Notes: a model not told the origin generated them from the letters alone. DNA of 64,000 bases from a bacterium (GCA_965216315.1 CBDCFN010000016.1:1736378-1800377); one strand, 5' to 3'. Numbered from the stretch's first letter, positions 1 through 15,114 are shown. A program made the numbers and translations.

Positions 1-135
1 GTGAGATAGATCTTCCGAGGTGACCGGGGACCCCATAGAGACTCCCCCGTAGCCACAGCCGTGCTAATGACCGTCTCCTCCCCATCCGCTTCGGTTTCGG
101 CCTGCACGACAGGAGGCATACTAAGGCCATACATC
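1..135 (-). CDS. Possible 5' end (about 45 codons) of an unknown gene running off the window; begins MYGLSMPPVVQAETE...
   Basis: Minus-strand ATG at about 133-135, open to the window edge. Too short to classify. Not in the ORF track because under 60 aa. Confidence 0.2.
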
Positions 136-239
136 AATAAAGCAGTATAAAGCCCTAATTTAAATATAAATATTCTGCTCAAGGTGGACATGGAATCTAC
201 TAAGGAATTTGCGAAATACAAGCGTCTTTTTTGCCCTGG

Positions 240-1517
240 TTAGTAGCTTGTAACCTCAAGAGCTCGGATATTTGCAGGTCGGGTCGGCAACGTAAAGTAA
301 AAACGGCTCCCAATTCCGGGACTCGATTCGACCCACAGGCGCCCTCCATGGAGCTCTATGATCTTTTTCGCGAGCGCCAACCCCAATCCGGCCCCCCCGT
401 GACTTCGCGTCATCCCCCCATCGACCTGCCGAAAGGCCTCAAAAATATCCGCAAGATGCGCCGGGTCGATGCCCGTTCCCGTATCCGCAACCGTGATCTT
501 GACCTTATCCCCAGCCAGCTCGGCCTGAATCCGCACCTCCCCCTGCGCGGTAAACTGAATCGCGTTTTCCAAGAGCTTCTCGAGAACCAAGCGGACCTTC
601 TCTTCATCGCCATACACTGAGGGAAGTCCTGGTCCCCACGCCTGGATAAGCTGAATGTCACGCGCCTGAATCTGCGCCTGCATCGACTGAATCTGTTCTT
701 CGAGGACTTTGTCGATAGGAAATTTTTTGATCGTCAACTGCTCCGGGCAGGACTCTAATTGTGACAGGTCGAGTATCGCGCGATGGATATTAAGGAGCTG
801 CTCACCGGCGGATTTGATCATCGCCAAGTGATTACGCTGTTCTTCATTGACTACCCCATCCACTCCATCCGCGAGGGCCTGCGCCAAACCGATAATATTA
901 TGCAACGGCGTTGCCAATTCATGGGTCATATTCCCCACAAAATTGCCTTTAAGTACCGACAACTCCTTGAGCTTGGCATTCTGGCGGAGCACTTCATCGT
1001 ACAAGAGTGAATTTTGAATCGAAATGCTTAATTCGTAACCAAATAGGCTCAAGAGTTCGCGTTCTTCCTTATTAAAGCTGCGTCTTCCTTCCGGGGCGGC
1101 AATAGCCACAAAGCCCAAAAGCTTGCCTTCGATGCGCAACGGCACGAGCGCCGAGGCCTTAAGCTCGACAAAGACTTTGAGAAAACGATCGCGATGCTTG
1201 GGAAATCGGACTGTCGTGATGGCCTCAATGGTCAGCGGCTCGTCATGGCTCTTAAGCCAGTTCACGAGTGGAGACCTCCCCGCAAGCTTAAAATGGAGTG
1301 GGGCCGCTCCTAGCCGTGATTTGACCAAATAAGCCCCTTCATCGCTTGTGCGGAGCAGAATACTCGCACTGCGCACCGCAAAGATCTCGGCTAGCGAGCT
1401 CAAAGCGACACTCAACAGCTTATCGCGCGATTGAAGCGAACGAAGCCCTGCAATATGTTGGGAAAAGATTTCTTTATAATCGTACGACTCCCGTTGAAAG
1501 AGTCGGAGCTGGAACAT
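240..1517 (-). CDS. Soluble sensor histidine kinase with an N-terminal GAF-like domain (HisKA + HATPase_c)
   Basis: H-box HELATPLHNIIGLAQAL; G1/G2 boxes DTGTGI ... GGAGLGLALAKKIIELHGGRLWVESSPGIGSRFYFTLP. No TM segments. Last gene of the big minus-strand operon. Confidence 0.85.
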   Translation of the reverse strand: MFQLRLFQRESYDYKEIFSQHIAGLRSLQSRDKLLSVALSSLAEIFAVRSASILLRTSDEGAYLVKSRLGAAPLHFKLAGRSPLVNWLKSHDEPLTIEAITTVRFPKHRDRFLKVFVELKASALVPLRIEGKLLGFVAIAAPEGRRSFNKEERELLSLFGYELSISIQNSLLYDEVLRQNAKLKELSVLKGNFVGNMTHELATPLHNIIGLAQALADGVDGVVNEEQRNHLAMIKSAGEQLLNIHRAILDLSQLESCPEQLTIKKFPIDKVLEEQIQSMQAQIQARDIQLIQAWGPGLPSVYGDEEKVRLVLEKLLENAIQFTAQGEVRIQAELAGDKVKITVADTGTGIDPAHLADIFEAFRQVDGGMTRSHGGAGLGLALAKKIIELHGGRLWVESSPGIGSRFYFTLPTRPANIRALEVTSY

Positions 1518-1538
1518 TGGAAGGGAGTGTACTAAATT

Positions 1539-2669
1539 TTACGTGCCGTCACAAACGGTATCGTCGTCACCAGCACAAAGAATGGTGGCCTCGATCCGGA
1601 CGGCGATATCGAGTCCGACGGCGGCCGACAAAGGACCACTTCCCTCGGTGACGAGTGTCGTGCCGACCAGATGCACCGTCCCATCATCCTGGACTGGCAA
1701 GCCCAAAATATTGTTCCCACTGATGATAAAATCACCCGCTAAAAGCCGATCATTGGGAACATCAAGCGAGTCGACACTCCCCGACGTAAAAGGCATATCG
1801 AGTACCAGGGTTGAGTTGTTGTCGACCAAATCAACGACGAGATTAGGCAAAGTCAACTCACCGGTGTCTGCATTGTAACTTCCCGTCACCGCGGACCGGG
1901 TCGTAATATGCGTCTGGCCGGAAATAATACTCAGAACCGGACCCAACGCGGGGACACTGGGATCGGGAGGCGGTAAGAAGAAATTGTCGCCTGAGGTGAT
2001 TTGCGGAAATGAAAAGTCACCATTCGTCGCAATGTTACCCACCAAGGTAACGGGGGCAAAGGCATCGACACCCATCTCGGTATCCATCGGCACACCGAGA
2101 CCTCCGGTGGACACCACCATATAAGTAATTGTCAGATCGACATCGCCACTTAAATCAACGGAACTCCCCCCGCTAGAGACTTCAGGGCAATCCTCTTCCC
2201 CTTCCGACTTTCCATAGAGCTCAATTTGGATGATGCCTGAATTCTCGCCATTAAACGACATATCGACAATAGCCGTATGAATCGAGTCCCCACTCTCTTC
2301 TAAGGGACTATAACGGACGCGCAGCGCATAACTGGCCCCGGCAGGAATCTCCAACGGACTGATTCCACCGGCGGCATCCGACGGGATCTCTGCATCCGAG
2401 CCGATTTGAAAACCACGTATCGTGAAGTGTCCGGCCCCATTTGTGCCGGGTGCCAAGACAGCGCCCAGCATACTGAGGGTTTTACCCGTGGTATTTTGAA
2501 AATTGAAAACACGTTCGTTAATGCCGCACTTGGGCGTCACACTGAAGGCCCCTTGGACGAGATCGCTGAATTGCCCTTGCTGGGTACAGGCACTCATCCA
2601 GAGCACCATGAAGGCGCCAATCAGCAGCTTAAAACGGGAACGTGAATTTTTCATAAGGTGCAGCATCAT
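1539..2669 (-). CDS. Hypothetical lipoprotein (376 aa), no recognisable family
   Basis: Signal peptide plus lipobox-like LWMSAC; Gly/Ser/Thr/Asp-rich. A 21-nt gap separates it from the downstream HK gene. Confidence 0.7.
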   Translation of the reverse strand: MMLHLMKNSRSRFKLLIGAFMVLWMSACTQQGQFSDLVQGAFSVTPKCGINERVFNFQNTTGKTLSMLGAVLAPGTNGAGHFTIRGFQIGSDAEIPSDAAGGISPLEIPAGASYALRVRYSPLEESGDSIHTAIVDMSFNGENSGIIQIELYGKSEGEEDCPEVSSGGSSVDLSGDVDLTITYMVVSTGGLGVPMDTEMGVDAFAPVTLVGNIATNGDFSFPQITSGDNFFLPPPDPSVPALGPVLSIISGQTHITTRSAVTGSYNADTGELTLPNLVVDLVDNNSTLVLDMPFTSGSVDSLDVPNDRLLAGDFIISGNNILGLPVQDDGTVHLVGTTLVTEGSGPLSAAVGLDIAVRIEATILCAGDDDTVCDGT

Positions 2670-2718
2670 TCCAATTATCGGTAAAAATCAAGAAAAGTTG
2701 CTACTTCCGAGGAAGCCC

Positions 2719-4212
2719 TTAAAAAGAGCCGCCTACCCGGACTCCAGCCCCTGTCGGGGTTCTTGAAGCAGGATTGGTCGGGTCCATGGTCAGGAAGAAA
2801 CCACCACCCAGGCTTCCCACCCCGGCGGACATGATTTGGATGCCGGAGGTGCGCTGTGCTTCGCCTGAAACGTCGAGGTGCGGGTTCGCATCGGGACCGG
2901 CGCCGATCGGCCGATGCGTCAAGACGTCATCGGGCCCACTGTTCAGATTAGGAGCCGTCAACATCAACGCCAATCCGACCCCTAACTGCAGGGCACCACA
3001 GCCAATCATGGCACCGCGACTGTGCCAAATATCGTTAGAACCAGCCGCGCGCGGAATACCCGGCGCACCACCACAGAACAAAGCGGCACCAGCTCCGGAC
3101 ATCTCGGGGACATTACCGAAAATACCGCCGAGTTGAATACCCGCTCCTCCGAGCATGGTCACAACCGTCGCAATAGTCGTATTCGTCCGTGATTCAGCAC
3201 CGTCCGGATCCGCATTGATCACGATCTGACCGGTGTTATAAGAAATGTTACCGTAGTTAATCAGGTTAAGTCCGCCAACCAACAAACCGAAATTATCATC
3301 GCGCAACCCATCGATATGGGAGACGTCGCTGCCGAGACCGGCAACACGAATCGAATGCGTCCCCGCGACACCAATGGCAAATAAACGATAACGGAGTCGC
3401 GCCCCCGGCGTTAAGTCTTCGCTGGTCGGTGTCTCCTCAAAATTGAAGCGTAGATGAAAACCCGTCGTTAAATTGTAAGGAACTCGATTGGGCCCACTTC
3501 CACCCAGCTCGGAGCGCTGCTGCAAACCAATCCCGAGATTGACGTGCCGGCCTAAATCAAGGCTCAAACCGGTAAAATCTTCAACGCCAAAGCTCACCGC
3601 ACCATCGGCGCGGTCATGATCGATCACGCTTAAGTAAAGCCCTGGGTTTTGATCGAGTAAGGTCCGAAAATTCGAATCACCAAAACGGAACAACTCACCG
3701 GAATGAGCGAGACCAAGCCCGATACGATGGCGCAGGGCATAGTCCGAGGGAAAACGATCGTCATAAGGGGTATGAAAGAGACCGTAACTCGCAAACAGAC
3801 GATCCCCAGGTGGCAGGTTGAGTTCAAGCTGTAAAGACCCACCATTCTCCGGCTGCAAATTAGCAGCATTTTGCCGGATTGCAGGGAACATCCCGAGTTG
3901 TCCCCCCAACACAATACTCCCGAAACGCAGGGCTGGCGTGCGGATGCGCTCATTCGCCTCCGTAGGATTTTCTGTTGCTGTTGGATTGGGATCGGTCGTC
4001 GGTTCCGGACAGGGAATTAGGGTACCATTTTCGATACGGGGTCGACATGCACCGGAACCGTCCGTTGTCGTTGAGGGAGACGCCGTATTCGGTTCGGGAC
4101 AGGTATAAAGGTGTCCATCATGAATCTCCGGCCGACAGGTCGTCGCCGCGTCGCAGACCATGCGTCTGACATCCGTTCCCCCTTCATTGACTGTACGTGG
4201 TTCACATCCCAT
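2719..4212 (-). CDS. Hypothetical Gly-rich protein (497 aa) with an N-terminal Pro/Thr/Cys linker, no signal peptide, C-terminal Phe (beta-barrel-like?)
   Basis: ATG at 4210-4212 with GAGGAAGAA RBS 7 nt upstream. Repeated TCPEP/PCPEP motifs. Ends ...GVRVGGSF. Confidence 0.6.
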   Translation of the reverse strand: MGCEPRTVNEGGTDVRRMVCDAATTCRPEIHDGHLYTCPEPNTASPSTTTDGSGACRPRIENGTLIPCPEPTTDPNPTATENPTEANERIRTPALRFGSIVLGGQLGMFPAIRQNAANLQPENGGSLQLELNLPPGDRLFASYGLFHTPYDDRFPSDYALRHRIGLGLAHSGELFRFGDSNFRTLLDQNPGLYLSVIDHDRADGAVSFGVEDFTGLSLDLGRHVNLGIGLQQRSELGGSGPNRVPYNLTTGFHLRFNFEETPTSEDLTPGARLRYRLFAIGVAGTHSIRVAGLGSDVSHIDGLRDDNFGLLVGGLNLINYGNISYNTGQIVINADPDGAESRTNTTIATVVTMLGGAGIQLGGIFGNVPEMSGAGAALFCGGAPGIPRAAGSNDIWHSRGAMIGCGALQLGVGLALMLTAPNLNSGPDDVLTHRPIGAGPDANPHLDVSGEAQRTSGIQIMSAGVGSLGGGFFLTMDPTNPASRTPTGAGVRVGGSF

Positions 4213-4230
4213 AATAAATTCTTCCTCTCT

Positions 4231-5340
4231 TTAGGAACCTCCATCTCCATTAGAAGTACTGTCCGGCGGACTGACTAATTCGACGGAAAACGTTGAAGCC
4301 GTATTTCCGTCGAGATCGGTACAGCCGCTACAAAATTGATAAGAACTTGCATCAAAGCCCTGGCCGACATCAAAAATCATATAGCTCTCCCCGCCGGTCA
4401 ACAGCATAAGCTGCTCATTTTTAATGAATCCAGGGGTAGGAACAAACTCACCGGGCTCCGGGTTTTCCGGAACATCTTCCGGCTGCCAAAACTCAGGAAG
4501 TCCACTATTGGAGTACAAACTAAACACCGACACATCCTGAGGATTGTCAAGGTCCGCCGGCTGGGCACCACCAATCGTATTCCGGCAATGCAGAATCAAC
4601 TCGCCCAGGGCTAAGTCGTAGGCCCCAACACAGGAGTAAACCAGACCAATCGGAATCAAGGGGTTTTCAGCCGTATCAATGCCGCAAAAATTAAGCCCGG
4701 GGACGGGATAACCATACTCATTAAAGCCACTGTAGTTGGTTTCATAACCGAGATTACAGATGCTATCCCCATGTTCGCGTAACTGCATCACGGAATTAGC
4801 AATATTCGTCCAGGATAGATCCGGTGACGTTTGAAAATCGGCCGGACGATTGGTCCACTGCCCGATCCCTCTAAAATAGGCAACAGAGGCAGGATCCGCT
4901 GTCTGCACCATCGCCACAAGGTCTGGATCCAGGGCGCTGACGTCATCCGCAGAAATATTTTCACCCGTCCGTGTGACGGTTAAATAACTACTCGTATTCA
5001 ACGAAGGGTTACCGTTAAAGACGTGCTCATTCGCAGTCAAACGGAGATGAATATGCGGTGGCAATTGAGGAACGCCATCTCCTTCTTCGGCGAGACAATC
5101 GGCCAGGTCTTCTCCTTCGAGCCCTTCGCAGGGGTCCTCATCGCTCGGATCAGGAACGATCGGATCTTGCGGCGGTCGTCCGCCACCATCCGGCCCGCCT
5201 AGCTCATCACCATCGCCACCGCAACCACTCAACAGGGCTACTGTCGTGAGCGCAATCGGCGCAATCGTCAATCTTGCCATCGTTCCCATCGCATTCATGA
5301 CCGGGGCAAGCGTCGTCGCTAGTGGTGCTAAGAATGACAT
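4231..5340 (-). CDS. Hypothetical acidic lipoprotein (369 aa)
   Basis: Signal peptide ...ALTTVALLSGC with lipobox LSGC. Its start overlaps the stop of the upstream 1428-aa gene (TAATG), indicating translational coupling. Confidence 0.7.
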   Translation of the reverse strand: MSFLAPLATTLAPVMNAMGTMARLTIAPIALTTVALLSGCGGDGDELGGPDGGGRPPQDPIVPDPSDEDPCEGLEGEDLADCLAEEGDGVPQLPPHIHLRLTANEHVFNGNPSLNTSSYLTVTRTGENISADDVSALDPDLVAMVQTADPASVAYFRGIGQWTNRPADFQTSPDLSWTNIANSVMQLREHGDSICNLGYETNYSGFNEYGYPVPGLNFCGIDTAENPLIPIGLVYSCVGAYDLALGELILHCRNTIGGAQPADLDNPQDVSVFSLYSNSGLPEFWQPEDVPENPEPGEFVPTPGFIKNEQLMLLTGGESYMIFDVGQGFDASSYQFCSGCTDLDGNTASTFSVELVSPPDSTSNGDGGS

Positions 5341-8300
5341 TAGTTAAACCTCCAGCTTCTATAAATATTGGGAATCTCGCGTGCTTCATTCATCGTCGCG
5401 TCATCGAGTGATTCTTCCATCTCCATGGGATCGATGGCTTCTGGATCCATTTCGGGAGCTTCATCAGCACCATCAGAACCATCTGCACCATCGGAACCGT
5501 CCGTGTCAGGATCCGGATCTTCTGGATCATCCGAGGGGTCTATATCTTCTGGATCAACAGTTGTATCATTCATATCCATCGACATGCTTTCTGTCCCCTC
5601 GGAATCACAAGAATTAAGAACGGGATCAAAACCAATGCCTAAGTAACGTGGTTCTCCCGACGTGATGCGAATCACGGGATCATCCAAACCAAGCGAACGG
5701 AAACCAAAGCCTTGCAATAAATCTTCCAGGCTATCTTCTTCGGCCGTTCCATCACACACAGCGTCTTTAGGCAGTACGGTATCAATTTCCAAGGCAAATT
5801 CATTGCCACCACCGAAATTGAAGAGATTGAGCGTCGTCCCGTTCAGGTTGGCGTTCATATTAATGGCCAGATCCGCATCCGAATAAGGGGTATTGTTTTC
5901 TTTGACCGAGATTTTAAAGAATGAGGCTTCCGGATCCGGAACAAGGGACACTTGGCCGTTCGGCTTATGCAGTTCTTTAGGCTTCAGTCCGGCCGTGATT
6001 TTAAGTTTTCCATCGGACGTATCCGTCTCATACTGGGCCCAAGCAGTAACCGACGCATCCAGACGGAAACTCAGGATAGGAACATCTTTATCCTCGGTAC
6101 AATTTGGATGAGCCTGCGGTTGTCTATCACACCAACTAATCAGATTAACGGTCTCTCCCCCTTCAACTTGGCGACGCAGGTTTGTTTCCGGGTCAACGCG
6201 TTTGCCATCCTCATCGGTCAGAACCTCATCTTCGAACACCTGCAGTTCGGCGTCGGAAAGAGCCACTTTAAGAGCCAGAGAAATAGCTTGAGGTCGGCCA
6301 TTAACATCTTCTATCGCCGAACTGCTCAAAAATTGGACCATCGGCGGCAAATTAGGATTCAACTTGAGGCGGAAACGCAACGGTGTACTCAGTTCTTCCT
6401 GAGTCACACTGCCATCGCCGTTCAAGTCAAATTCACCGATAATTTGATCTACCTGAAGGCGCAGCGGAAAACATTCCTTCGGCTGCTTTTCTACCGGCAC
6501 GGCCACCAATAAGCCGTCATCATCTTTCTTAAAACACTGTTGCGGGGCAACCGTCGCACCGATACCAAAGCGATCCACGACACCAAAGTCATTGGTATCG
6601 ATAAAGTCTGGTTCCCTATCCAAGAGCTCGTTCAACATGGTTGCAATACCATGCAGGGCCATGTTCGCCATCTCTTCTTTGAGGGTCAGATTGACGTTCT
6701 TACGAAGGCGGCGCGCCGCACTGATCGGATCGACTTTGCCGGATTCTGCATCGGCTAAATAACCATTATCGGAATTTTTAATCGATGCCGGCAAATTGTT
6801 CATGAAGTCAACCGAATCACGCTCACTATCGGGAGTCGGATCGCCTTCCTCAAACGCACCCGAAGGCAGCACTAAACTACCACCTTTGAAAGAAATGCCA
6901 CGCGGACTAAGGATGAGATCCGCCTTCAAGAGATCTGAGAATATCTCCGTCGTAAACTCTTTACCAAAGAGAGGTACCGTAAGAGGCATGAGTGGATCGT
7001 TCGCGAACTTGCCGAGCTCTTTCGTTAAAATCTTTGGCGTCAAACAAGAAACCTGGCTTTTGATCGTCTCTACGAGCTGCGTCGAAACGTTGGCGCTTGT
7101 CGGCGTCGGCTCCAAACTGGAACCATTGATCTGCTGATTGAGAGATTCCATCGCCTTACAGGCCGGTTGATCGATCCAAACTTCAGCCGTTTCACTGCTC
7201 TCATCGTAACAGCCGTCACCATCCAGAGTTGTACTCCATGGCCGATCACAACGAAATTTGACTAACCGTCCGCCCGGTCCCCAAGCATCAATCAAGTCGT
7301 GACCCGGAATCGGATTAACCGCTGTTACAGTAAGCCCGCTCTCGTCCTTGGAAAGTTGGATCTCCAGATTAACGGTCAACCAATTGACTTGCAATTCAAC
7401 CGGAAGAACACCCAAACCAAGGTCCTGATCTTTGTCAAAGCAGGCACCCTGGAGCTTGTTGTCAACAAGATCTAAGCCGGCACAGTCCGTCTCATTACAT
7501 TTGATCGTAAAAATTTCCGTGAAACCGCTAAGCCCCGCGATTTCTAAACGCACCCAGGCGCGATTCTTATTCAAGAAATGAAGGGAACTGATATCAAGAG
7601 CCCCAATCGTCGGATCAATAATATTGAAGGTCCGAAAAAGGTTGGGTTGCGGTCCGACCCAATCGCATTGATCAACCGCTTCTTGAGTCGGCGCTTGCGG
7701 CTTAAAAAGAGCTAAGAAAATATCTTTTTTAAACTTGTCCGTGTTCATCGCCGTTTCGATGTCGTCTATCAAGGCGCCCTGACCGCTTTCCGTCACCTCA
7801 AGATAAGAGGCCGGAATGTGTCCAGCCAATGCCGCATCAACTTCCGTCCTAATTAAATTTCCTTCATCATCGAAGCGGCTTCGCATCTCACCATAACCAA
7901 AGCTCACGGACTTTTGCGTATCACGGCCTTCATCCGCCGCTTTCACCGTCACGGCTTTGAGTGGGAAACTAAGTCCGCCCTCCTTCAACTTGAATACATA
8001 TTTTTTATCTTCGGCTGCCGTCGGACACATTTCATAGAATTCATCGAGCTGCTTATCCGGGTTGCCGCGCTCAAAGATCGGCAAGGTCTCATTATCTTCC
8101 TGGATACAGGCTCGATCCATCGTTACCGGAACGACTTCAAGCGCTGTCGTGCAAATAATTGATGTGGGACTTGGGCACGGAGAAATATTTATCTGGTTGA
8201 GAAATGTCTCGCAATCCTCGACACCAAGGTTGTCGCAGATTTCTTGGCAGGTAAAATCCTGACCCTCTTCTCCCTCGGCCGCGGCAATGTCACATATACC

Positions 8301-9626
8301 GTCGTTGTCGTTATCCGGATCGTCAATATCGAGGAGTCCATCCTTGTCAAAATCATTGCAAAGGCGTCGGGCATCAAGGTCACAACCCGCTTCCACTGAA
8401 GGAATAAAGGTCGGTGCTTCTTCCGGACAGGCCCCTACACCAGCCACGACCACCATATCGGTTATTTCATCGGCGCGGACAGGCCAACCATCAAGTTTCT
8501 CGATATAGTGACCCTCCTGATCAAAGAATTGGAGACATAACTCTGGGGCGGCTACTTGGTTGTCCAGCGGAGCGACTTCAATGACCTGACCATCACCGGG
8601 ATTATACCCTGTCACCGTATTTTGAACGCGGATGGAAATGTCATTGCTGCCGTTACCTAGAGGAATACCTGTAATCAAAAAGCCATTCGTATTCCCCGCC
8701 GCGCAGAGCGCGTTACGTCCGCAAAAAATTTCAACCGTGGGACAGGCTAATTCGGCAATTTTGGCGTCCGTACAATCTTCTTCAGCCACCTCAGCCGCAG
8801 TACAACAAACAGAGTCTGATTCAGCCTGCGCGTTATCCACATCCTCAACGGTCGGACAGGGTCGACTCAAGGTCCAGTGCTTGCCCGTTTCCTCTTCCGT
8901 TGCTTCATCGATTTCATTAGTTACGGTCACAACAACCTTGGCACCCGATGCATCTCCCTCTGGATTAGCCAGACAGATGTCGAGCGTTTTAGAAGCAATC
9001 GGGTCAGAACTCAGAGTGTATTCACCGGTTCCAGCATCTTGCGTAATGCCTGGCGTCAGATCTTCGTCGGCCTGATTGAGTTCGGCCATGGTAATTTTCA
9101 GATCAGGGGCAGAAACTTTAACAAACTGGCGATTGATAACAACGATGTTCGGAAGACCCATGTTGGCAATGAAGAGAGCATTTGTACTCGCAACATAGAG
9201 GCCCGGATCGGAAGACGGGAGAGTGACGTTCGCTTCAAAATCACCGCCGGTCAGCGAATTAGGATCGATAACGACTCGCGGCGGCACATCGACAGGATTA
9301 TCGACAGAATTAACTTCTACGAAAAAATTGGCTAGGTTTGGAACCTGGGTCGCCAACCCACTAACACAAATACTCGTCCCGAGGACCTCCGGCGGGGTGC
9401 CCGCATTAGGCGGCGCTGGCTCGGCCACACAAAGCATTCCCGAATCTCCGCCTTCGAAATTCTCAGGGTGAGCGATCTCATCACAAAAATCACTGACCGG
9501 ATTGGTAGGCGGAGTGCAGACGGCATAGGCCGCTCCGCACACCGCTAATGACACCCCATTAAGGAGTAAGCCTAGAACCAAAAAACGTCGTAATTTCAAC
9601 AACATTAGCGTAAGAATCTCCCTCAT
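5340..9626 (-). CDS. Giant secreted protein (1428 aa) with thrombospondin-type-3-like Ca-binding repeats and a poly-acidic C-terminal tail
   Basis: N-terminal signal peptide. DFDKDGLLDIDDPDNDNDGICD (about nt 8289-8354) fits DxDxDGxxDxxD. C-terminal DPSDDPEDPDPDTDGSDGADGSDGAD... tail. Confidence 0.75.
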   Translation of the reverse strand: MREILTLMLLKLRRFLVLGLLLNGVSLAVCGAAYAVCTPPTNPVSDFCDEIAHPENFEGGDSGMLCVAEPAPPNAGTPPEVLGTSICVSGLATQVPNLANFFVEVNSVDNPVDVPPRVVIDPNSLTGGDFEANVTLPSSDPGLYVASTNALFIANMGLPNIVVINRQFVKVSAPDLKITMAELNQADEDLTPGITQDAGTGEYTLSSDPIASKTLDICLANPEGDASGAKVVVTVTNEIDEATEEETGKHWTLSRPCPTVEDVDNAQAESDSVCCTAAEVAEEDCTDAKIAELACPTVEIFCGRNALCAAGNTNGFLITGIPLGNGSNDISIRVQNTVTGYNPGDGQVIEVAPLDNQVAAPELCLQFFDQEGHYIEKLDGWPVRADEITDMVVVAGVGACPEEAPTFIPSVEAGCDLDARRLCNDFDKDGLLDIDDPDNDNDGICDIAAAEGEEGQDFTCQEICDNLGVEDCETFLNQINISPCPSPTSIICTTALEVVPVTMDRACIQEDNETLPIFERGNPDKQLDEFYEMCPTAAEDKKYVFKLKEGGLSFPLKAVTVKAADEGRDTQKSVSFGYGEMRSRFDDEGNLIRTEVDAALAGHIPASYLEVTESGQGALIDDIETAMNTDKFKKDIFLALFKPQAPTQEAVDQCDWVGPQPNLFRTFNIIDPTIGALDISSLHFLNKNRAWVRLEIAGLSGFTEIFTIKCNETDCAGLDLVDNKLQGACFDKDQDLGLGVLPVELQVNWLTVNLEIQLSKDESGLTVTAVNPIPGHDLIDAWGPGGRLVKFRCDRPWSTTLDGDGCYDESSETAEVWIDQPACKAMESLNQQINGSSLEPTPTSANVSTQLVETIKSQVSCLTPKILTKELGKFANDPLMPLTVPLFGKEFTTEIFSDLLKADLILSPRGISFKGGSLVLPSGAFEEGDPTPDSERDSVDFMNNLPASIKNSDNGYLADAESGKVDPISAARRLRKNVNLTLKEEMANMALHGIATMLNELLDREPDFIDTNDFGVVDRFGIGATVAPQQCFKKDDDGLLVAVPVEKQPKECFPLRLQVDQIIGEFDLNGDGSVTQEELSTPLRFRLKLNPNLPPMVQFLSSSAIEDVNGRPQAISLALKVALSDAELQVFEDEVLTDEDGKRVDPETNLRRQVEGGETVNLISWCDRQPQAHPNCTEDKDVPILSFRLDASVTAWAQYETDTSDGKLKITAGLKPKELHKPNGQVSLVPDPEASFFKISVKENNTPYSDADLAINMNANLNGTTLNLFNFGGGNEFALEIDTVLPKDAVCDGTAEEDSLEDLLQGFGFRSLGLDDPVIRITSGEPRYLGIGFDPVLNSCDSEGTESMSMDMNDTTVDPEDIDPSDDPEDPDPDTDGSDGADGSDGADEAPEMDPEAIDPMEMEESLDDATMNEAREIPNIYRSWRFN

Positions 9627-9711
9627 GGCGAGTATCGGTTTCTACGGTCAAAAGTTGTCAGGTTTTCAGGGGTAAAAATGGTGAATTTTCGCAAGAAGCT
9701 CGGCTAAGCCG

Positions 9712-12700
9712 CTAATTGATATTACAAGAACCGGCGCCACCTTGCGGAACACAGGCCTTGATGATCACGTACATATCGCGAGGCGCCGCCAACTGCGGAG
9801 AATTATGCTTCAGGCGGAAAGCCCCCGCCAGGTCAAAGGTCAGACCCGATGGGACCGAGTTACTGTCCAAATGGGTCGTTGTATTCGTATCTGGTACGGA
9901 ATCAACTGCCGGTATTCCCATGCGGCGACCGCGCATCACATTCGCCCCAGCAGCGCAATCCGGCATGGTATCCATATGTTGCTTCAACGGATTGTCCCCA
10001 AAAATCGTATTCTTGTTGCTTCCACCGGCATCCAACTCCGTGGCGCCGAAGACCTGAGTGGTTAAGAGAGCCGCCGGTATCGCCGCGCTGAGACCCGGTT
10101 CAGCAACCAGTACATTACCCTCTGCATCCGCTAGACATTCCGTACTCAACGTTCCTACCATCGCCGAATCAACTCGATCGGTCAGATCTGTCTTAGGATG
10201 CATGAAAAGTCGAATCGCCACGTTATTGGTAAACTGAATCTTACCGCCGGCCGGATCGTAAACACCCAAGGCTTCCTCAAAATCCGCGTCAGAGGAAAAG
10301 TCGACCGATTCCGGATTCTTCGCAATAATACTGAGCGCATCCGAAGATGAATAGTTCGTATAAATGGAGGGTGCCGGCGCAGAAGACTCAAAGCTGGTTT
10401 GGTCTTTTGCAATGTAAAGATAGAATTCCGAACAACCAGCCCCTGGACTACTCTGACAATCATCCCGGAACAACCACTGACCGCCACTGCCTGGACCGGA
10501 CGCGGTCGGATTGAAGAGACGCATCTGCCCCGTGCCACCGGTAAATGCGGGCGGCAACGGTGTGAATACAGGGTCCAGCGTGATAATTCCATTCGCCGCG
10601 TCAAAGGTAACCGGCAGTTTAAAGGTATCAAACCCACTCAGGCTGGCGCGATCACGTTGGCCTGGTGTCACGGTCGAAGTCATTTTGGTCCCATCAGGAA
10701 GGGCCGTATTGATACCTCCAACCATCCTCAAGACGTGAAGGTTGGCTCCTCCATTCGGCGCCCCGCTCACCCCTTGCAGGCTGCCGTTGAGAACCAAGGG
10801 CTCATTCGCAGCACTCTCACAGGTTCCGCCTTGATTGATCGCGTCACCCGTTACATCCAAAGTCGCACTATGAAGTGTCCGTGAAGTCGCGCCGCCATCC
10901 GTAATATAAGCAATGTCACCAATTTTAAGTGCTTCGCCAGGATTCAAGATGAGACAACCACTATCAAAGAGCGTCGGTTCTGGAATCGTTGCATTCCACT
11001 GAGCCGCATCAACACCCCCAGCGAAAGTTATATTGCCGTTGGTTACGCGTAAAGCATCCGCCAGGAGCGCGGCATTTCCATTGACAAGATAAACACCGCG
11101 GGTGGACGTATCACTTCTGAAGGCCGTATAGCCTTCGACGGGATCGACTCTGACCGCAGCCTTCGTATTTCCTTCGACACAAATAACATTGGAAGGAAGA
11201 ATCCCGCTGCAATCAATCAAATGCGGATTATCCGTAATTCCAGCGTCTAATAGGACCGGATCTTCGATATAAACTTCCAGTCGCGCTGCGAGATCCAAGG
11301 TCATCGCGCCGCTCAAACTCAATAAGCGATTACCGGCATCGGTCTGAATCAATACACTCGCAGCATCCTGGCGGCAGGGTTTGCCCTCACAGTCATCGGG
11401 CTCCGTGGGCAGATTACCGCTGGGCCAGTAGACTTCATAGAAATAAAGCTTATCGCTGCCATCCGTCGATACCGTTGCCGGCATGGGGCTGAAACTAAAC
11501 AGCGCATCTTCGAGAGATTCACCCTGAAGGGTGGCCCCTTTCATGAAATTAAAGGTCAGATCATTTGATTGAACGGAGGTCACCGTCAGGTCACGAACAC
11601 CACTATTACTGATCTCGTAGGCCTTGATCACCGGTGTCCCGACCGGGGTCGTTCCATAAGCGACTTCACCATCGCCGGGAATCAGTTCCGGCATCACAGG
11701 AAGATTATACGTCTCGCCCTGGATCGCACCAACCTCCGTAACCTTAACATCCGCTGCGGGTGGCCGTGCCGTCCCGGTTACGGTAATTGTTAAGGAGCCG
11801 CCCTCAAATATATCAATCTCGGCGGTACAATCCCATTTGGTCGGATCAATGTCATTGTCGACGCATCCACTTGGCTTCGGATCCGTCGGTGCAAAGCGCA
11901 CCTGAATGTTTTTTGATTCACCGGAGTTTAATGAGGTCCCATTCAAAAGACCCGCCGCCGCAATTTCAAAGGCCGTATTGTCAGAACTTATATCAAAGAC
12001 CGGCGCCGCATCAGAAGGCGTCCCGTCATTTGTAATCGTCAAAGAAATAATCGTCTCGAAACGGGCCAGAACATTGATATCCGTAATCCCGGCATCGACT
12101 TCTTCTTTATAAAAAGGCTCATCGGCCAGATCCACCTCGGCCGTAAAGACATTGGCATCACCCTCAGTGAGCGGAAGGTCCTCCCCATCGAGATCCACAC
12201 TAATATTAAGATCACCCGAACCACCGCCATTATTGCCACCGCTGCTGCCTGTCTTCGCACAGGCCGTTGCTAGGTCGACAAAGGGGGTTCCATCGGCATT
12301 CTCAACCGGTCCCTCAATTTCAGCACCCAAGGCCGCTCCCTGTAATCCGGCCAGGCAGGTCTCGGTTGGAATTGATAAGCCCGTCACCAGGCGCAACCAA
12401 GGTTGATTCGGGTTACTCCCGGGATTGGTTCCGCACGCCGGAGAGTCCACATCACCATCCGGATCCATTGTGCAATCACACTCACTCGCAGGCGCTATCG
12501 GGCAACCGGTAAAAGTAATCGTTCCTGATGAATCCGCAATGCTGGCATGCGGTTGGGCATCCGAATTCGTTCCCGTCGTAAATGTCAGCGGTAACCCCTC
12601 AAGCGGAGGCAACACGGATACGCCCTGCAAACCGGTCGTCGAACAGGTCACGCCGGACATCTTAATCAATGGGTCTTCAAGGTTAAATCCGGGATCGGTA

Positions 12701-13794
12701 AAATCACTGACATAGGCATCGAAGATCGCCGGCGGAGGTGCCGTATGATCCGTAAAAGGAAACTTGATCAGATTGATCGCGCGAAAATGTAACGGCAAAG
12801 CAGTTACGGAAACACGGCCCGATTCATCGACAGAGTAATCCCCCTGTCCCACAATTTCAGGTATTTGAATCCCCGGCGCAATGAGCTCACCGTGACCGGC
12901 GTCAACCGCGAGATTGGCCTGCAGGTCTTCACTCGTATTATAAATCAGATAGTCCGGAAACTCAGAAGCCTTGATAAAAATCTTTCCGCCAGCATTGGGA
13001 TCAGACGCATTATCGGGAACAAAATAGAGATTGATGGGATCCTGGTCACGCGTCGCAAAGGGAATCAGCGGCACATTGGTTCGGGCCAGACAATCCGTTT
13101 TAGAATCTCCGGAAAACTTGTTGCATTCAGTAATAAGCGCCGGGTCGTCCTCCGGACCACTGTTCTTCACGCACCCAAACTCAGTGACCTCGTTATCAGT
13201 ACTACAGGCGTTAGGCAAATCTTGCGCGGGAAACTGGGCATCGATATAAAGTTTGAGCCCGACATTGTCAGGTGACTTCAGTCCCGCCTGCCACACGACC
13301 TTACAGGTATCCGTCGGAATATTGACGCACTCACACTTGACTAGGTCTATGGTCTGACTTGCGGTACATGTTGGAGGGGTCGGGCACGAATTAACGACAC
13401 AGGAATTACTCGAGGTATTACAGGTTTCACCGTCCGCACAATCCTCGTTAACACGACATCCGACCTGACAAACATCACTCTCACAAATCTGATTGTCGCC
13501 GTTACTATCATCGGGGCAATCAGAATCGCTACTACAGTCGGGAGCAGGTGTACTGACATTACAACTCCCGTCCGACTTATTACACTCCTGCCCCGTCGGA
13601 CAGGTCACGTTGGCACATAGATCCGTACCGCTACCGCTCCCGCCATCACCTGAATCATCGTCGACGCCGGGGAAGGTAAACGGTGCATCGGAGTTGGGCT
13701 CGCTAAACAAGCCGCAGCCGGCCGTCGTAAAAACGAGCGCAAGTGTGACTAGGAGTGGCAGGAATCGAATCTTATGTGACCTGATTAATCGCAA
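9712..13794 (-). CDS. Giant Cys-rich secreted protein or lipoprotein (about 1360 aa mature ORF; track ORF extends to 14034)
   Basis: Long ORF with signal peptide RFLPLLVTLALVFTTAGC. No ATG lies between the track start and the signal peptide. Likely TTG start at 13792-13794 with GAGG 7 nt upstream. Cys-rich module at about 13314-13644 (CPTGQEC, CSSDSDCPDD, CQVGC, CADGETC). Confidence 0.65.
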   Translation of the reverse strand: MRLIRSHKIRFLPLLVTLALVFTTAGCGLFSEPNSDAPFTFPGVDDDSGDGGSGSGTDLCANVTCPTGQECNKSDGSCNVSTPAPDCSSDSDCPDDSNGDNQICESDVCQVGCRVNEDCADGETCNTSSNSCVVNSCPTPPTCTASQTIDLVKCECVNIPTDTCKVVWQAGLKSPDNVGLKLYIDAQFPAQDLPNACSTDNEVTEFGCVKNSGPEDDPALITECNKFSGDSKTDCLARTNVPLIPFATRDQDPINLYFVPDNASDPNAGGKIFIKASEFPDYLIYNTSEDLQANLAVDAGHGELIAPGIQIPEIVGQGDYSVDESGRVSVTALPLHFRAINLIKFPFTDHTAPPPAIFDAYVSDFTDPGFNLEDPLIKMSGVTCSTTGLQGVSVLPPLEGLPLTFTTGTNSDAQPHASIADSSGTITFTGCPIAPASECDCTMDPDGDVDSPACGTNPGSNPNQPWLRLVTGLSIPTETCLAGLQGAALGAEIEGPVENADGTPFVDLATACAKTGSSGGNNGGGSGDLNISVDLDGEDLPLTEGDANVFTAEVDLADEPFYKEEVDAGITDINVLARFETIISLTITNDGTPSDAAPVFDISSDNTAFEIAAAGLLNGTSLNSGESKNIQVRFAPTDPKPSGCVDNDIDPTKWDCTAEIDIFEGGSLTITVTGTARPPAADVKVTEVGAIQGETYNLPVMPELIPGDGEVAYGTTPVGTPVIKAYEISNSGVRDLTVTSVQSNDLTFNFMKGATLQGESLEDALFSFSPMPATVSTDGSDKLYFYEVYWPSGNLPTEPDDCEGKPCRQDAASVLIQTDAGNRLLSLSGAMTLDLAARLEVYIEDPVLLDAGITDNPHLIDCSGILPSNVICVEGNTKAAVRVDPVEGYTAFRSDTSTRGVYLVNGNAALLADALRVTNGNITFAGGVDAAQWNATIPEPTLFDSGCLILNPGEALKIGDIAYITDGGATSRTLHSATLDVTGDAINQGGTCESAANEPLVLNGSLQGVSGAPNGGANLHVLRMVGGINTALPDGTKMTSTVTPGQRDRASLSGFDTFKLPVTFDAANGIITLDPVFTPLPPAFTGGTGQMRLFNPTASGPGSGGQWLFRDDCQSSPGAGCSEFYLYIAKDQTSFESSAPAPSIYTNYSSSDALSIIAKNPESVDFSSDADFEEALGVYDPAGGKIQFTNNVAIRLFMHPKTDLTDRVDSAMVGTLSTECLADAEGNVLVAEPGLSAAIPAALLTTQVFGATELDAGGSNKNTIFGDNPLKQHMDTMPDCAAGANVMRGRRMGIPAVDSVPDTNTTTHLDSNSVPSGLTFDLAGAFRLKHNSPQLAAPRDMYVIIKACVPQGGAGSCNIN

Positions 13795-13951
13795 CAGCAA
13801 CCTCGCTTTGAGGGCTCTAAGCCCTGCCGCATCTATCGTCAATTGATTTCGATTGTTGCTAACGCGAGGCGTCAATTCAAACAAAATAAAATGAACATTT
13901 TCAAAAACTTGCGAAAACTCTGCTTGCCTCCTGGCCGGTGTATTTGACATC

Positions 13952-14419
13952 TTGAGAAGCATGACAGTCGAGCATTCCGGACCCCACAAAAAGCCCAAGA
14001 TCAGCCTCGTCGAGGTGATGGTTGCCGTCGCCATTATCGGAACGGCAGCCTCGCTCGCCGTTCCCCGCTACATGAAAGATATGAAAGCCGAACGGCAAGC
14101 GGAATGCCCCCGCGAACTCAATAAAATAGTCGCGGCTCAACAGGCTTTTTTTCAAGCCCATCAGCGCTATAGCGCTAATTTAGCTGACCTTGACTGGAAG
14201 CCCCCGGCTAAAGCCGTTTATCTCTATGGCTTTCACAATGGATCGGTGTCCAAGACAGATAATCCGGAGCTCAGCGCCGACAAACTGCCGAAAACAACGC
14301 TTTCGCCACAACATTTCATCATCGGCTGTATCGGCAATCTCGATACCGATCCGGAACTAGATATTTTTACCATCGATGAGCAAGCAAAGCTCGTCCACCT
14401 CCACAACGACCGGCAATAA
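13952..14419 (+). CDS. Type IV pilin-like or pseudopilin-like protein with a non-canonical prepilin leader
   Basis: KISLVEVMVAVAIIG-TAASLAVPRY aligns with GFTLIELMIVVAIIG-ILAAIAIPxY of type IV pilins (Glu at +5 present), but position -1 is Lys rather than Gly. Divergent from the large operon. Confidence 0.6.
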   Translation: MRSMTVEHSGPHKKPKISLVEVMVAVAIIGTAASLAVPRYMKDMKAERQAECPRELNKIVAAQQAFFQAHQRYSANLADLDWKPPAKAVYLYGFHNGSVSKTDNPELSADKLPKTTLSPQHFIIGCIGNLDTDPELDIFTIDEQAKLVHLHNDRQ

Positions 14420-14625
14420 CTCATTGCTTCTAAGCACTTTTTTGGCTGCCAATATGATGACGTTTTGCGGCAAAATGGGTGATTTTTGACCCCAAATCAG
14501 CCATCTCAGGGCCTTGCTGCCGCAGCACCCAGAGCTCTGTAAATGATATCAGAGACTTACAACCAGCATTCCTAGGCCATTTTGGCATGAGATTTGCTTT
14601 TTATAAGCAGGGAAGGAACGTTGGC

Positions 14626-15114
14626 ATGGATAATCTCGCTGAGCGCCTCTCGCATGGAGGCCGAAAACGCATCTTGGTTGTTGATGACAATGAGATGCTG
14701 CTCAAGTTCTGGGACCGCTTGTTGGGTGCCAAGCACCTCAACTATTCTCATTATCAAATCACCAAGAGTGCTGAAGAAGCCCTCCAACTGATGGGTACAA
14801 CTAAATTCGATATTGCCATTATTGATATCGTGATGCCCAATATCGATGGTTTTGATTTTGTCCGCGAGGCGTGGACTCAAAACCCTGATATGCAACTTGT
14901 GTTCACAACCGCATATGAATGCGACTTCCGTCATGTCTCTCTGAGTGCAACTGAAGATAACCGTCGTGACGTGCATGTCTTGTTAAAACCTTACCAAGAC
15001 ATCAGTAAGATTGAAGAATTTATCGCGCGTTTGAGCGATGAAGATGCCTCACTCAATAATACGCCGCCCATTAAAAATGAAACCAATCTTCGTTTCCACT
15101 TGTGGCGACTTTAA
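14626..15114 (+). CDS. Single-domain CheY-like response regulator (receiver only)
   Basis: RILVVDDNEMLLKF ... IAIIDIVMPNIDGFDFV receiver motifs. ATG 14626 is preceded by GGAAGGAA, which is a better start than the track ORF start at 14479. Confidence 0.8.
   Translation: MDNLAERLSHGGRKRILVVDDNEMLLKFWDRLLGAKHLNYSHYQITKSAEEALQLMGTTKFDIAIIDIVMPNIDGFDFVREAWTQNPDMQLVFTTAYECDFRHVSLSATEDNRRDVHVLLKPYQDISKIEEFIARLSDEDASLNNTPPIKNETNLRFHLWRL

Follow-up and report, generated by a model that had tools for sequence, protein, structure and literature searches.

A conserved cell-envelope gene cluster of uncultured "Deltaproteobacteria" built around a giant secreted protein with a predicted double-TULIP fold

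The window analysed here is a 64,000-nucleotide stretch of bacterial DNA (GCA_965216315.1 CBDCFN010000016.1:1736378-1800377), in which six ORFs are packed closely on the minus strand between positions 240 and 14034. A first reading of this DNA from the sequence only (the sequence-only reading) had described six tightly packed genes with one TAATG junction, and the ORF coordinates and the junction sequence bear this out, with gaps from g6 to g1 of 85, -1, 18, 49 and 21 nt. The features, numbered from the first letter of the window, are as follows:

1..191, minus strand: possible start of a seventh gene, 63 aa visible, running off the window edge
240..1517, minus strand: g1, soluble GAF-HisKA-HATPase_c histidine kinase, 425 aa
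1539..2669, minus strand: g2, 376-aa lipoprotein, lipobox WMSAC
2719..4212, minus strand: g3, 497-aa Gly-rich protein
4231..5340, minus strand: g4, 369-aa lipoprotein, lipobox LLSGC
5340..9626, minus strand: g5, 1428-aa secreted protein, the core of the cluster
9712..14034, minus strand, as the full ORF (1440 aa), or 9712..13794 with the likely revised start (1360 aa): g6, giant lipoprotein
13795..13960, no strand: divergent intergenic region between g6 and the pilin-like gene, 166 bp, from the revised starts
13961..14419, plus strand: pilin-like gene, 152 aa
14626..15114, plus strand: stand-alone receiver, 162 aa

The g5/g4 junction is a TAATG overlap reading ...TTTAACTAATGTCA..., with GGAGG upstream, and by this overlap g4 is judged to be translationally coupled to g5. 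Since scans for promoter and terminator consensus sequences returned sites no more numerous than in shuffled sequence, it is from the spacing alone that we infer co-transcription of the six genes; the 166-bp divergent intergenic region likewise holds no promoter consensus above chance. The operon would probably extend beyond six genes if the ORF that starts on the same strand at ~191, 48 nt past the kinase stop, is a gene. Its N-terminus is signal-peptide-like (…PPVVQA|ETE… in the reverse-strand translation), and its segment 'LWGPRSPRKIYL' weakly resembles 'LFGPRSGKIVYL', which lies just after the signal peptide of a TolC-like outer-membrane protein (OEP) at the related locus L082. With an E-value of only 0.25, this likeness at the left edge of the window is a suggestive but weak hint. 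The genes flanking the cluster are housekeeping genes, and the rest of the window contains two genes for patatin-like phospholipases.

The 1440-aa ORF of g6 overlaps the pilin-like gene and places ~80 residues in front of a lipoprotein signal peptide, with which the g6 homologue of L001, the closest relative, starts directly. The likely start of g6 is therefore the TTG at 13794, which is preceded by GAGG and gives a 1360-aa protein beginning MRLIRSHKIRFLPLLVTLALVFTTAGC… as well as the 166-bp intergenic region. Of the sizes proposed earlier, those of 376, 497, 369 and 1428 aa thus stand and that of 1440 aa probably does not. The lipoprotein assignments of g2 and g4 hold by virtue of their lipoboxes, g6 (lipobox TTAGC) is likewise a lipoprotein, and g3 has no signal peptide. 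A Cys-rich N-terminal region of g6 is followed by a conserved C-terminal part of ~780 aa ending MYVIIKA, and a g6-relative fragment in L001 is 52% identical to the window protein. Searches with g6 gave no Pfam or PDB match; there was a weak signal to NF012200 (choice-of-anchor D; 18 bits against a cut-off of 45) and, in one g6 relative, a weak match to a HYDIN-type Ig domain (0.022). The single-sequence AF2 model of g6 is unusable (pLDDT 30.9).

g5 carries a signal peptide with probable cleavage at AYA|VC. An exhaustive HMMER search of 1.84 billion representative proteins yielded 31 relatives (17 at E<1e-30). All come from "Deltaproteobacteria" MAGs, and each either lacks a name or is labelled 'hypothetical protein'. 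This is a small family of ~1300-aa secreted proteins, with invariant Cys residues in its alignment. Most relatives are missing the following segment, as judged from the g5 sequence and the C-termini of the relatives:

5343..5609, minus strand: acidic low-complexity C-terminal tail of g5, aa 1340-1428

The label 'TSP3' previously given to this protein finds no support, as Pfam TSP_3 matches neither g5 nor any of 19 family members; the acidic motifs of g5 amount to D-x-D-x-D-G-like sequences and one weak EF-hand-like loop (15.9 bits against a cut-off of 25.4).

The AF2 model of g5, in contrast to that of g6, is usable (pLDDT 78.8, pTM 0.74), and its predicted architecture comprises two regions:

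7800..9209, minus strand: three beta-sandwich (Ig/FN3-like) domains of g5, residues ~140-609
5610..7784, minus strand: double-TULIP region of g5 with large insertions, residues ~615-1339, boundaries approximate

In the model, low-confidence acidic, Cys-rich linkers part the beta-sandwich domains. Residues ~615-1339 form helix and long twisted beta-sheet modules in a BPI/LBP/CETP-like arrangement, that is, two back-to-back barrels (helix, long twisted beta-sheet, helix) round a central sheet, and a conserved D-x-[DN]-G-D-G loop lies inside this region at aa 1059-1081. The best-conserved ~700 C-terminal residues of g5 are thus predicted with high confidence to be a double-TULIP of the BPI/LBP/CETP type. 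BPI and LBP are among the closest structural matches of the model. Alignments to BPI-type structures span ~760 columns for targets of ~450 residues, so the TULIP region is heavily elaborated; the TM-score normalised to the target is 0.34-0.45, and identity in structural alignments to BPI/CETP-type structures is 10-13%. At the sequence level, g5 matched neither LBP_BPI_CETP (PF01273) nor LBP_BPI_CETP_C (PF02886) at E<=0.1, 19 family members matched neither at E<=0.01, and against PDB sequences neither g5 nor its profile hit a TULIP protein, the profile giving no match at all. The earlier statement that only the kinase belongs to a recognisable family is accordingly right for sequence models and wrong at the level of fold.

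The giant proteins could instead make up a structural envelope scaffold, S-layer-like or periplasmic, with the TULIP-like region a structural beta-sheet module that carries no lipid. We regard this as highly improbable: the structural matches on which such a scaffold would draw fall well short of those to CETP and BPI and are limited to the Ig-like domains, the g5 family is rare and low-copy, and MlaC and OEP genes that adjoin the cluster in relatives fit transport better.

Gene order around g5 is conserved well beyond the window. A g6 relative lies just upstream of the g5 relative at 11 of the 13 loci with visible upstream DNA, counting the window (the others are L081, L083, L085, L087, L088 and L091-L095); L089 and L090 have no adjacent g6 relative. 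Relatives of g2 occur at six loci including the window. At five distant loci (L082, L083, L085, L094 and L095) the cluster continues directly downstream into genes for a TolC-like OEP, MlaC and a phosphodiesterase, the MlaC of L082 being assigned by its 52-60% identity to those of L083 and L085. Beyond these genes lie ribosomal L19 and RNase HII in L094 and ETF genes in L083, L085 and L095. The cluster genes and the scanned window ORFs include no MlaC, and neither OEP nor phosphodiesterase was seen inside the window; that all three adjoin the cluster in the sister clade could be due to a gene order inherited from a common ancestor.

Might these be fast-evolving, lineage-specific envelope genes that merely sit side by side? 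Gene order does vary among loci, most loci share no recognisable homology in g3, g4 or the genes in their positions, and the promoter and terminator scans are uninformative. However, the g6-g5 adjacency is kept although the giant proteins are only 22-30% identical (23-30% for the g5 proteins of other loci against window g5), g2 and the kinase recur at 39-41% identity, above the giant proteins, and coupling is tight or overlapping at several loci. A lack of joint function is in our judgement very unlikely. The sequences indicate a cell-envelope gene cluster, conserved and so far without a name, that belongs to an uncultured "Deltaproteobacteria" lineage, and the idea that the locus encodes an undescribed system holds up in that g6, g5 and g2 have relatives in synteny at many loci, not scattered.

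The smaller proteins g2, g3 and g4 have no assignable fold or family in profile searches. g2 has a homologue in L093 (39% identity, E 7e-80) and others at the cluster loci L095, L094, L083 and L085. Sub-threshold matches of these homologues to Cep192_D4 (ASH; E 1e-3 to 2e-2), in searches whose ASH/HYDIN test families were PF22073 and PF22544, weakly suggest an N-terminal Ig-like (ASH/Cep192_D4-like) domain in g2. g3 contains 15% Gly, two moderately hydrophobic Gly-rich segments and a C-terminus ending …VRVGGSF; positional equivalents that likewise lack a signal peptide are present at most loci, with no detectable sequence homology to it, and eight of 14 end in F. For g4, a homologue (L90_362) at the same position in L090 shares a DPCEG…ADLA[DQ]C motif (HMM E 3e-5). 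Directly downstream of the g5 relative, nine other loci encode a small lipoprotein, while in L085 two genes separate it from the g5 relative. Between most loci, g3, g4 and their positional equivalents have diverged past recognition.

g1 scores against GAF (3e-9), HisKA (5e-14) and HATPase_c (1e-29) and has neither a TM segment nor an N-terminal hydrophobic segment. Its orthologue in L092 (425 aa, 41% identical over 422 aa) directly follows the g5 relative, and a partial GAF-like ORF stands at the corresponding place in L090, which supports a soluble GAF histidine kinase as a recurrent member of the cluster. The receiver (Response_reg 2.9e-14) has the canonical DD/D/T/K residues, no output domain and a ~40-aa tail ending NLRFHLWRL; its L001 orthologue is 59% identical with the same tail, and no homologue was found at any locus besides the window and L001. 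Hydrophobicity and Pfam thus agree with the original description of a kinase with no TM segment and a receiver with no output domain. The HisKA H-box and HATPase_c of g1 and the conserved Asp pocket of the receiver mark them as two-component proteins, and the receiver is a candidate partner of g1. The two lie ~13 kb apart on opposite strands, and L092, which has the kinase orthologue, shows no receiver on its cut contig.

The pilin-like protein (N-terminus …HKKPK|ISLVEVMVAVAIIG…) keeps E+5 and the hydrophobic helix, but position -1 is K, not G, and position +1 is I. It matches NF041775 at 3e-12 (47 bits against a cut-off of 400) and falls below the pilin cut-offs of TIGR02532 (14.9 vs 16.3 bits) and N_methyl, PF07963 (13.3 vs 21.2). 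A canonical type IV pilin or pseudopilin, defined by G|F-x-x-x-E, was considered and rejected on the K at -1 and these sub-threshold scores. Orthologues are found in L001 (40% identity, A at -1) and L087 (29% identity); since the latter has a canonical MNRG|FSLIE, the window gene is a degenerate pilin descendant. The L087 gene adjoins UvrD, 9 kb and seven unrelated genes away from the cluster, and only in the window and L001 do the pilin-like gene and receiver lie beside g6. The pilin-like gene is thus probably a neighbour and not a core part, and neither it nor the receiver looks core to the cluster. Conservation of gene order therefore extends to g6-g5, g2 and, in L092, the kinase, and not, beyond L001, to the divergent pilin/receiver pair.

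In the model of the sequence-only reading, giant adhesins and lipoproteins would build a structure that serves surface adhesion or goes with a pilus, with a functional link to the divergent pilin and with a dedicated phosphorelay of the GAF kinase and the orphan receiver in control. Giant size, Cys-rich and acidic composition, export and Ig-like domains are all typical adhesin traits, the receiver-pilin-g6 synteny is kept in L001, and in L085 a He_PIG/cadherin/Big_9 adhesin-like gene lies upstream of the cluster. Yet profile searches of the cluster proteins (for the g5 family, n=19) gave no match to RTX, cadherin, PilY1 or other adhesin families, to which the large proteins might have belonged; the scanned window ORFs include no genes for pilus assembly; and the conserved part of g5, the only protein that could be modelled, is predicted to be a lipid-binding fold. 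Given also the distribution of the pilin-like gene and the receiver, we consider an adhesion or pilus structure quite unlikely.

Because g5 has a predicted BPI/LBP/CETP-like lipid-binding fold, lipid handling is a likelier task for the cluster than the building of a pilus or an adhesin. We read the region as a conserved, kinase-associated cell-envelope module for lipid binding or lipid transfer around the giant exported proteins g5 and g6, and put the probability of this reading at about 50%. The best reading of the module is as one of a bacterial double-TULIP type recently exemplified by TipA/TipB (Bd2538/Bd2539) of Bdellovibrio bacteriovorus, a BPI-like double-TULIP that binds lipids and membranes and an adaptor that opens it, encoded by an overlapping gene downstream; the same study reports double-TULIPs fused to beta-rich domains from AFDB (bioRxiv 10.1101/2025.09.09.675085). 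g5 is likened to TipA (Q6MK73) by predicted fold and gene layout. It is ~2.5x longer (1428 vs ~572 aa) and differs in its ~600 N-terminal residues of Ig-like domains, the large insertions in its TULIP region and its partners (the 1360-aa lipoprotein g6, more lipoproteins, a Gly-rich protein and a GAF kinase); partners of this kind are not described for TipA. Like the TipB gene, g4 is immediately downstream of and overlaps its TULIP gene, but it encodes a 369-aa lipoprotein, whereas TipB is a ~170-aa soluble C2-like beta-sandwich.

In such a module, the TULIP tube of g5 would take up acyl chains, whether of phospholipid, of lipid A or of some other amphiphile, and carry or channel them across an aqueous gap, which may run from the inner to the outer membrane, from the latter to the cell surface, or to another cell. 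A spacer or docking arm could be provided by the Ig-like domains of g5 together with its Ca-binding-type loops; g6 could be the membrane-anchored partner or dock, g4 (coupled to g5) and g2 adaptors, by analogy with TipB, and g3 a membrane-associated component. The cytoplasmic GAF kinase may tune expression or activity via some response regulator, for which the nearby orphan receiver is no more than a candidate. A lipid-trafficking pathway would fit the TolC-like outer-membrane protein, MlaC-type periplasmic lipid carrier and alkaline-phosphatase-family phosphodiesterase that sister lineages encode directly downstream.

The predicted fold is common ground with a reading that differs in target (non-self membranes) and role: as a predation or antibacterial effector, secreted g5 would behave as BPI or TipA does, bind the LPS or phospholipid of foreign bacteria and permeabilise them or extract lipid, with g6 and the small lipoproteins serving delivery or self-protection. 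BPI and LBP, the closest structural matches of g5, are LPS binders, the predator Bdellovibrio secretes TipA, a protein that destabilises bilayers, into its prey (bioRxiv 10.1101/2025.09.09.675085), the family is confined to MAGs under a label, 'Deltaproteobacteria', that covers predatory groups, and the patatin-like genes of the window could be counted alongside. However, nothing marks the organism as predatory, the cluster is flanked by housekeeping genes, PADLOC and Pfam show neither a secretion system nor a toxin/immunity signature in the vicinity, and the MlaC and TolC-like genes co-encoded in relatives point to the cell's own envelope. We hold an effector to be unlikely.

Going further than the lipid module itself, and possible if doubtful, is a multi-protein lipid conduit of a new type, in which an Ig-stalked double-TULIP g5 docked to g6 would bridge membranes, or cells in contact or in predation, in concert with TolC-like and MlaC-like components and under GAF-kinase control, confined to a poorly sampled deltaproteobacteria-like lineage. 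If true, it would be the bacterial equivalent of lipid-transfer proteins that act outside eukaryotic cells, here as part of an envelope apparatus. Like BPI, LBP, CETP and PLTP, g5 is predicted to be a tandem TULIP, extracytoplasmic, disulfide-containing and secreted; unlike them it is bacterial, much larger, multi-domain and operon-encoded with partners, and has no detectable sequence similarity to them. The proposed role, shielding lipids across the periplasm, is shared with Mla, MCE/Let/Pqi and the AsmA-like TamB/YhdP, and the likeness to Mla-type systems lies in the MlaC and TolC-like genes contiguous with the cluster at five related loci; inside the window neither MlaC nor OEP was seen. 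Profile searches found no MCE, MlaD/E/F, AsmA or Chorein-N domain in any cluster protein, and the folds differ: a predicted TULIP tube in g5, as against an MCE hexamer or a beta-taco groove. Clostridium botulinum OrfX/P47 and E. coli YceB match g5 structurally far more weakly than BPI and CETP do, and differ from it in organism, size and gene neighbourhood.

The six minus-strand ORFs of the cluster (g1–g6) are confirmed at the coordinates of the sequence-only reading, and their spacings (85, −1, 18, 49 and 21 nt) agree with those coordinates. They are listed here with their neighbours:

240–1517, minus: g1, GAF kinase, 425 aa
1539–2669, minus: g2, lipoprotein, 376 aa
2719–4212, minus: g3, Gly-rich protein, 497 aa
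4231–5340, minus: g4, lipoprotein, 369 aa
5340–9626, minus: g5, secreted protein, 1428 aa
9712–14034, minus: g6 as first read, giant lipoprotein, 1440 aa
about 191 to the window edge (1–191), minus: possible seventh gene, an ORF with a signal-peptide-like start, 48 nt past the g1 stop
13961–14419, plus: pilin-like gene, K/ISLVE, with Gly at −1 and Phe at +1 lost
14626–15114, plus: stand-alone receiver

At the g5/g4 junction, TTTAACTAATGTCA, one base is common to the g5 stop and the g4 start, and GGAGG lies upstream. The g6 ORF is real, but its 1440-aa length and its start are probably wrong: the ORF overlaps the pilin-like gene, and ~80 residues precede the lipoprotein signal peptide. A revised start at TTG 13794, located after GAGG, yields a protein of 1360 aa that begins MRLIRSHKIRFLPLLVTLALVFTTAGC… with a perfect lipoprotein signal peptide; the g6 homologue in the closest relative of the window (L001, MAG OFTM19) has a signal peptide of lipoprotein type right at its start. 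Should the ORF at ~191 prove to be a gene, more than six genes probably make up the operon. Promoter and terminator scans returned no more sites than shuffled sequence, Rfam and tRNA scans of the 64-kb window gave no matches, and the cluster proteins are not paralogous to one another or to further ORFs of the window. The cluster is flanked by housekeeping genes (UvrD, GlmS, GlmU, MgtE, MutY-like, CstA, GltBD and class II ribonucleotide reductase); with PADLOC also returning no matches, we rejected an anti-phage defence system.

Pfam identified GAF, HisKA and HATPase_c domains in g1, and in the plus-strand gene at 14626–15114 a receiver domain; no family passed its threshold in g2–g6. NCBIfam added nothing further and PADLOC nothing relevant; g2–g6 are five families without any Pfam or NCBIfam model. 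Assignment of g1 to the PEP-CTERM PrsK-type kinases was rejected (TIGR02916, 111 bits against a cut-off of 300), as was that of the cluster to RTX, cadherin or PilY1 adhesins, which gave no matches. PDB sequence searches with g5, g6 and their profiles produced marginal matches to calmodulin EF loops only. A word-indexed protein search returned no match either for g5 alone or for a 19-sequence g5 alignment, and for g6 the sole match was its own database record, P0001; exact-sequence look-ups of g1 and P0001 found no record, and a scan of genome contigs with g5 found no relative.

The apparent orphan status of g5 was overturned by an exhaustive HMMER search in which g5 residues 140–1339 served as the query against 1.84 billion representative proteins; 31 relatives were recovered, 17 with E < 1e-30. 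Their length is mostly 1220–1444 aa; one is 48% identical to g5 and the others 26–36%, and those given a name by their source are listed as 'hypothetical protein' from 'Deltaproteobacteria bacterium' MAGs. Their Sec signal peptides end in A-x-A followed by x-C-P and are replaced in a few by lipoboxes, and several Cys residues are invariant in the family alignment. None of the 19 family members scanned matched a Pfam family, and neither g5 nor 19 relatives gave a Pfam match that would back the 'TSP3' label initially attached to g5. Acidic low-complexity words probably filled the 8000-candidate list of the word-indexed search; having missed a 31-member family, its 'no homologues' verdict is unreliable for acidic giant proteins. 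More generally, proteins that a word-indexed search makes look like orphans were resolved here by exhaustive HMMER together with structure prediction. The host's lineage is deep and has barely been sampled: of 185,579 species genomes, a single one encodes a UvrD whose identity to that of the window exceeds 48% (68%, MAG 'Deltaproteobacteria bacterium OFTM19').

An AlphaFold2 model of g5 residues 140–1339, built from a 26-sequence alignment, was confident (mean pLDDT 78.8, pTM 0.74), with the C-terminal two-thirds mostly at 85–94; a single-sequence model of g6 was unusable (pLDDT 30.9). The N-terminal part of the g5 model comprises three beta-sandwich domains with low-confidence acidic and Cys-rich linkers between them, and the remainder consists of long helices alternating with very long twisted strands. 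In an independent Foldseek search the top-ranked matches of the model were LBP, BPI and CETP (probability 1.00, E from 3e-12 to 1.5e-11), and the match after them had E 2.8e-4. The structural alignments span ~760 columns for targets of ~450 residues, which implies large insertions in the TULIP (tubular lipid-binding) region of g5; one of these holds a conserved loop, D-x-[DN]-G-D-G, the source of the weak EF-hand matches. On the strength of this one predicted model, g5 is BPI/LBP/CETP-like at the level of fold while lying outside that Pfam family by sequence. The earlier statement that only the kinase has a recognisable family remains correct for sequence models, but not at the level of predicted fold. 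A BPI-like antibacterial or predation effector is a rival interpretation of the cluster, and an S-layer-like scaffold is another.

The gene order was followed in L001 and in 14 further loci with g5 relatives from metagenome and assembly collections, two of which duplicate others; a metagenome scan with a second g5-family alignment yielded only 4 loci. L001 displays GlmS, UvrD, the receiver and the pilin-like gene followed by divergent g6, in the same order as the window, before its contig ends after part of g6; L001 and the window are 59% identical in the receiver, 40% in the pilin-like protein and 52% over the N-terminus of g6. Upstream of the g5 relative, L081, L083/L084, L085, L087, L088 and L091–L095 each have a g6 relative (E 1e-19 to 1e-62 against the window g6), an arrangement present, counting the window, in 11 of the 13 loci with visible upstream DNA; the exceptions are L089 and L090. 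The two genes abut or overlap in L081, L085 and L088, and elsewhere one or two genes separate them. Relatives of g2 are found in L083, L085, L093 (39%, full length), L094 and L095. In most loci a small lipoprotein directly follows the g5 relative, and L090 has a g4 homologue (L90_362) at the same position, the only link that BLAST, phmmer and HMM iteration established between g4 and its positional equivalents. Most loci likewise have a Gly-rich protein without a signal peptide at the g3 position (8/14 end in F), for which the same three methods found no homology to g3. The C-termini of eight of the 14 Gly-rich proteins (window 2719–4212, minus; L083, L085, L090 and L092–L095) resemble an outer-membrane beta-barrel signal (…VRVGGSF, …AQFQLRF, …GYVLTF, …LNLRLVF), and a Sec signal is absent.

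The kinase recurs as well. Directly after the g5 relative, L092 encodes a 425-aa GAF-HisKA-HATPase kinase that shares 41% identity with g1 across 422 residues, a higher conservation than that of the giant proteins, and a truncated ORF at the kinase position in L090 aligns with the kinase N-termini. Conservation of gene order, a test that the sequence-only reading had proposed, holds across diverged loci for g6–g5 and less regularly for g2, with the kinase recurring, but not for the pilin-like gene and the receiver outside L001. Mere co-location of these genes is a rival explanation of the arrangement.

The homologues of the two divergent genes are as follows:

L001 12910–13452, minus: pilin-like gene, A/ISLIE
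L001 12217–12756, minus: receiver
L087 23180–23548, plus: pilin-like gene, canonical MNRG/FSLIE

No receiver homologue was found in loci other than L001, and beyond L001 the pilin-like homologue occurs only in L087, where it adjoins UvrD at a distance of 9 kb from the cluster, with seven unrelated genes in between. All three pilin-like genes are beside or near UvrD; given the position in L087, the gene tracks UvrD and not the cluster. Judged by its sequence, the pilin-like gene of the window and L001 looks like a degenerating or repurposed pilin. The receiver has a C-terminal tail of ~40 aa ending in NLRFHLW[RN]L that is kept in L001 and matched no known output domain. Neither gene appears to belong to the core of the cluster; the receiver is a candidate partner of g1. 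The initial proposal of an adhesion or pilus-associated structure governed by a kinase–receiver phosphorelay fares worst among the explanations, because the two genes are not conserved with the cluster and the searches gave no match to an adhesin family.

In L082, L083, L085, L094 and L095 the cluster is directly followed by genes for an outer-membrane efflux protein of TolC-like type (OEP), a periplasmic lipid-binding protein of the MlaC family and a type I phosphodiesterase (alkaline-phosphatase family). In these five loci g5 shares only 23–28% identity with the g5 of the window. The trio is kept in L094 though ribosomal L19 and RNase HII lie beyond it; in L083, L085 and L095 it is followed by ETF genes, in some also by TetR. 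Of the possible seventh gene, 63 residues lie inside the window; among them, 'LWGPRSPRKIYL' weakly resembles the N-terminus of the L082 OEP (E 0.25 in a tiny database). The window operon may continue into OEP–MlaC–phosphodiesterase, which we treat as a lead and not as evidence.

The best-supported reading is that the cluster is a conserved envelope module for lipid binding or movement, comprising the g5 double-TULIP, g6, accessory lipoproteins and a cytoplasmic GAF kinase. The computed results behind this reading are the existence of the g5 family, its export signals, synteny across diverged loci, the predicted double-TULIP fold and a recurring kinase orthologue. We infer that lipid is the cargo of g5, and likewise a direction and site of transfer, roles of g6, g2, g3 and g4 in the module, and a putative response regulator that would serve the kinase.

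Double-TULIP proteins of the BPI/LBP/CETP type were long regarded as a eukaryotic means of sensing and transferring lipids outside the cell. The closest described system is TipA/TipB of Bdellovibrio bacteriovorus, the first bacterial double-TULIP with a mechanism (2025–26). TipA, a secreted double-TULIP resembling BPI, holds lipids, binds bilayers and is opened by a small adaptor from an overlapping downstream gene; the preprint that describes it also reports double-TULIPs fused to beta-rich domains from AFDB (bioRxiv 10.1101/2025.09.09.675085). The translational coupling of g4 to g5 recalls the overlapping gene of TipB, and by analogy g4 would be a candidate TipB-like adaptor. With bacterial double-TULIPs already known, the cluster is not categorically new. 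The suggestion of an undescribed system survives in that we found no account in the literature of this architecture: an Ig-stalked TULIP protein of ~1300–1400 aa, a giant lipoprotein, g2-type lipoproteins and a GAF kinase, to which sister lineages add OEP, MlaC and phosphodiesterase. The cluster would be a second and far more elaborate bacterial setting for the double-TULIP fold, one in which a giant TULIP protein has a fixed giant lipoprotein partner, accessory lipoproteins and a dedicated kinase, joined in sister lineages by TolC-like and MlaC genes. As such it is a concrete candidate, open to testing, for a route not known before by which lipids move in diderm envelopes or between cells.

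The extra genes flanking the cluster in relatives are variable: an 878-aa He_PIG/cadherin/Big_9/TSP3 adhesin-like protein beside it (L085, 831–3467), a NosD-type beta-helix protein between the g6 and g5 relatives (L095, 7331–8668) and a CsgG-like gene 3 kb upstream (L087, 1112–2134). Elsewhere in the window, adjoining ORFs at 57973–58467 and 58512–59420 (minus) are paralogues (51% identical over ~150 aa), the larger of which has no Pfam match. Two tandem overlapping patatin-like phospholipase genes at 43846–45030 and 45027–46178 (plus), 33% identical paralogues, precede two alpha/beta-hydrolase genes that lie on the other strand.
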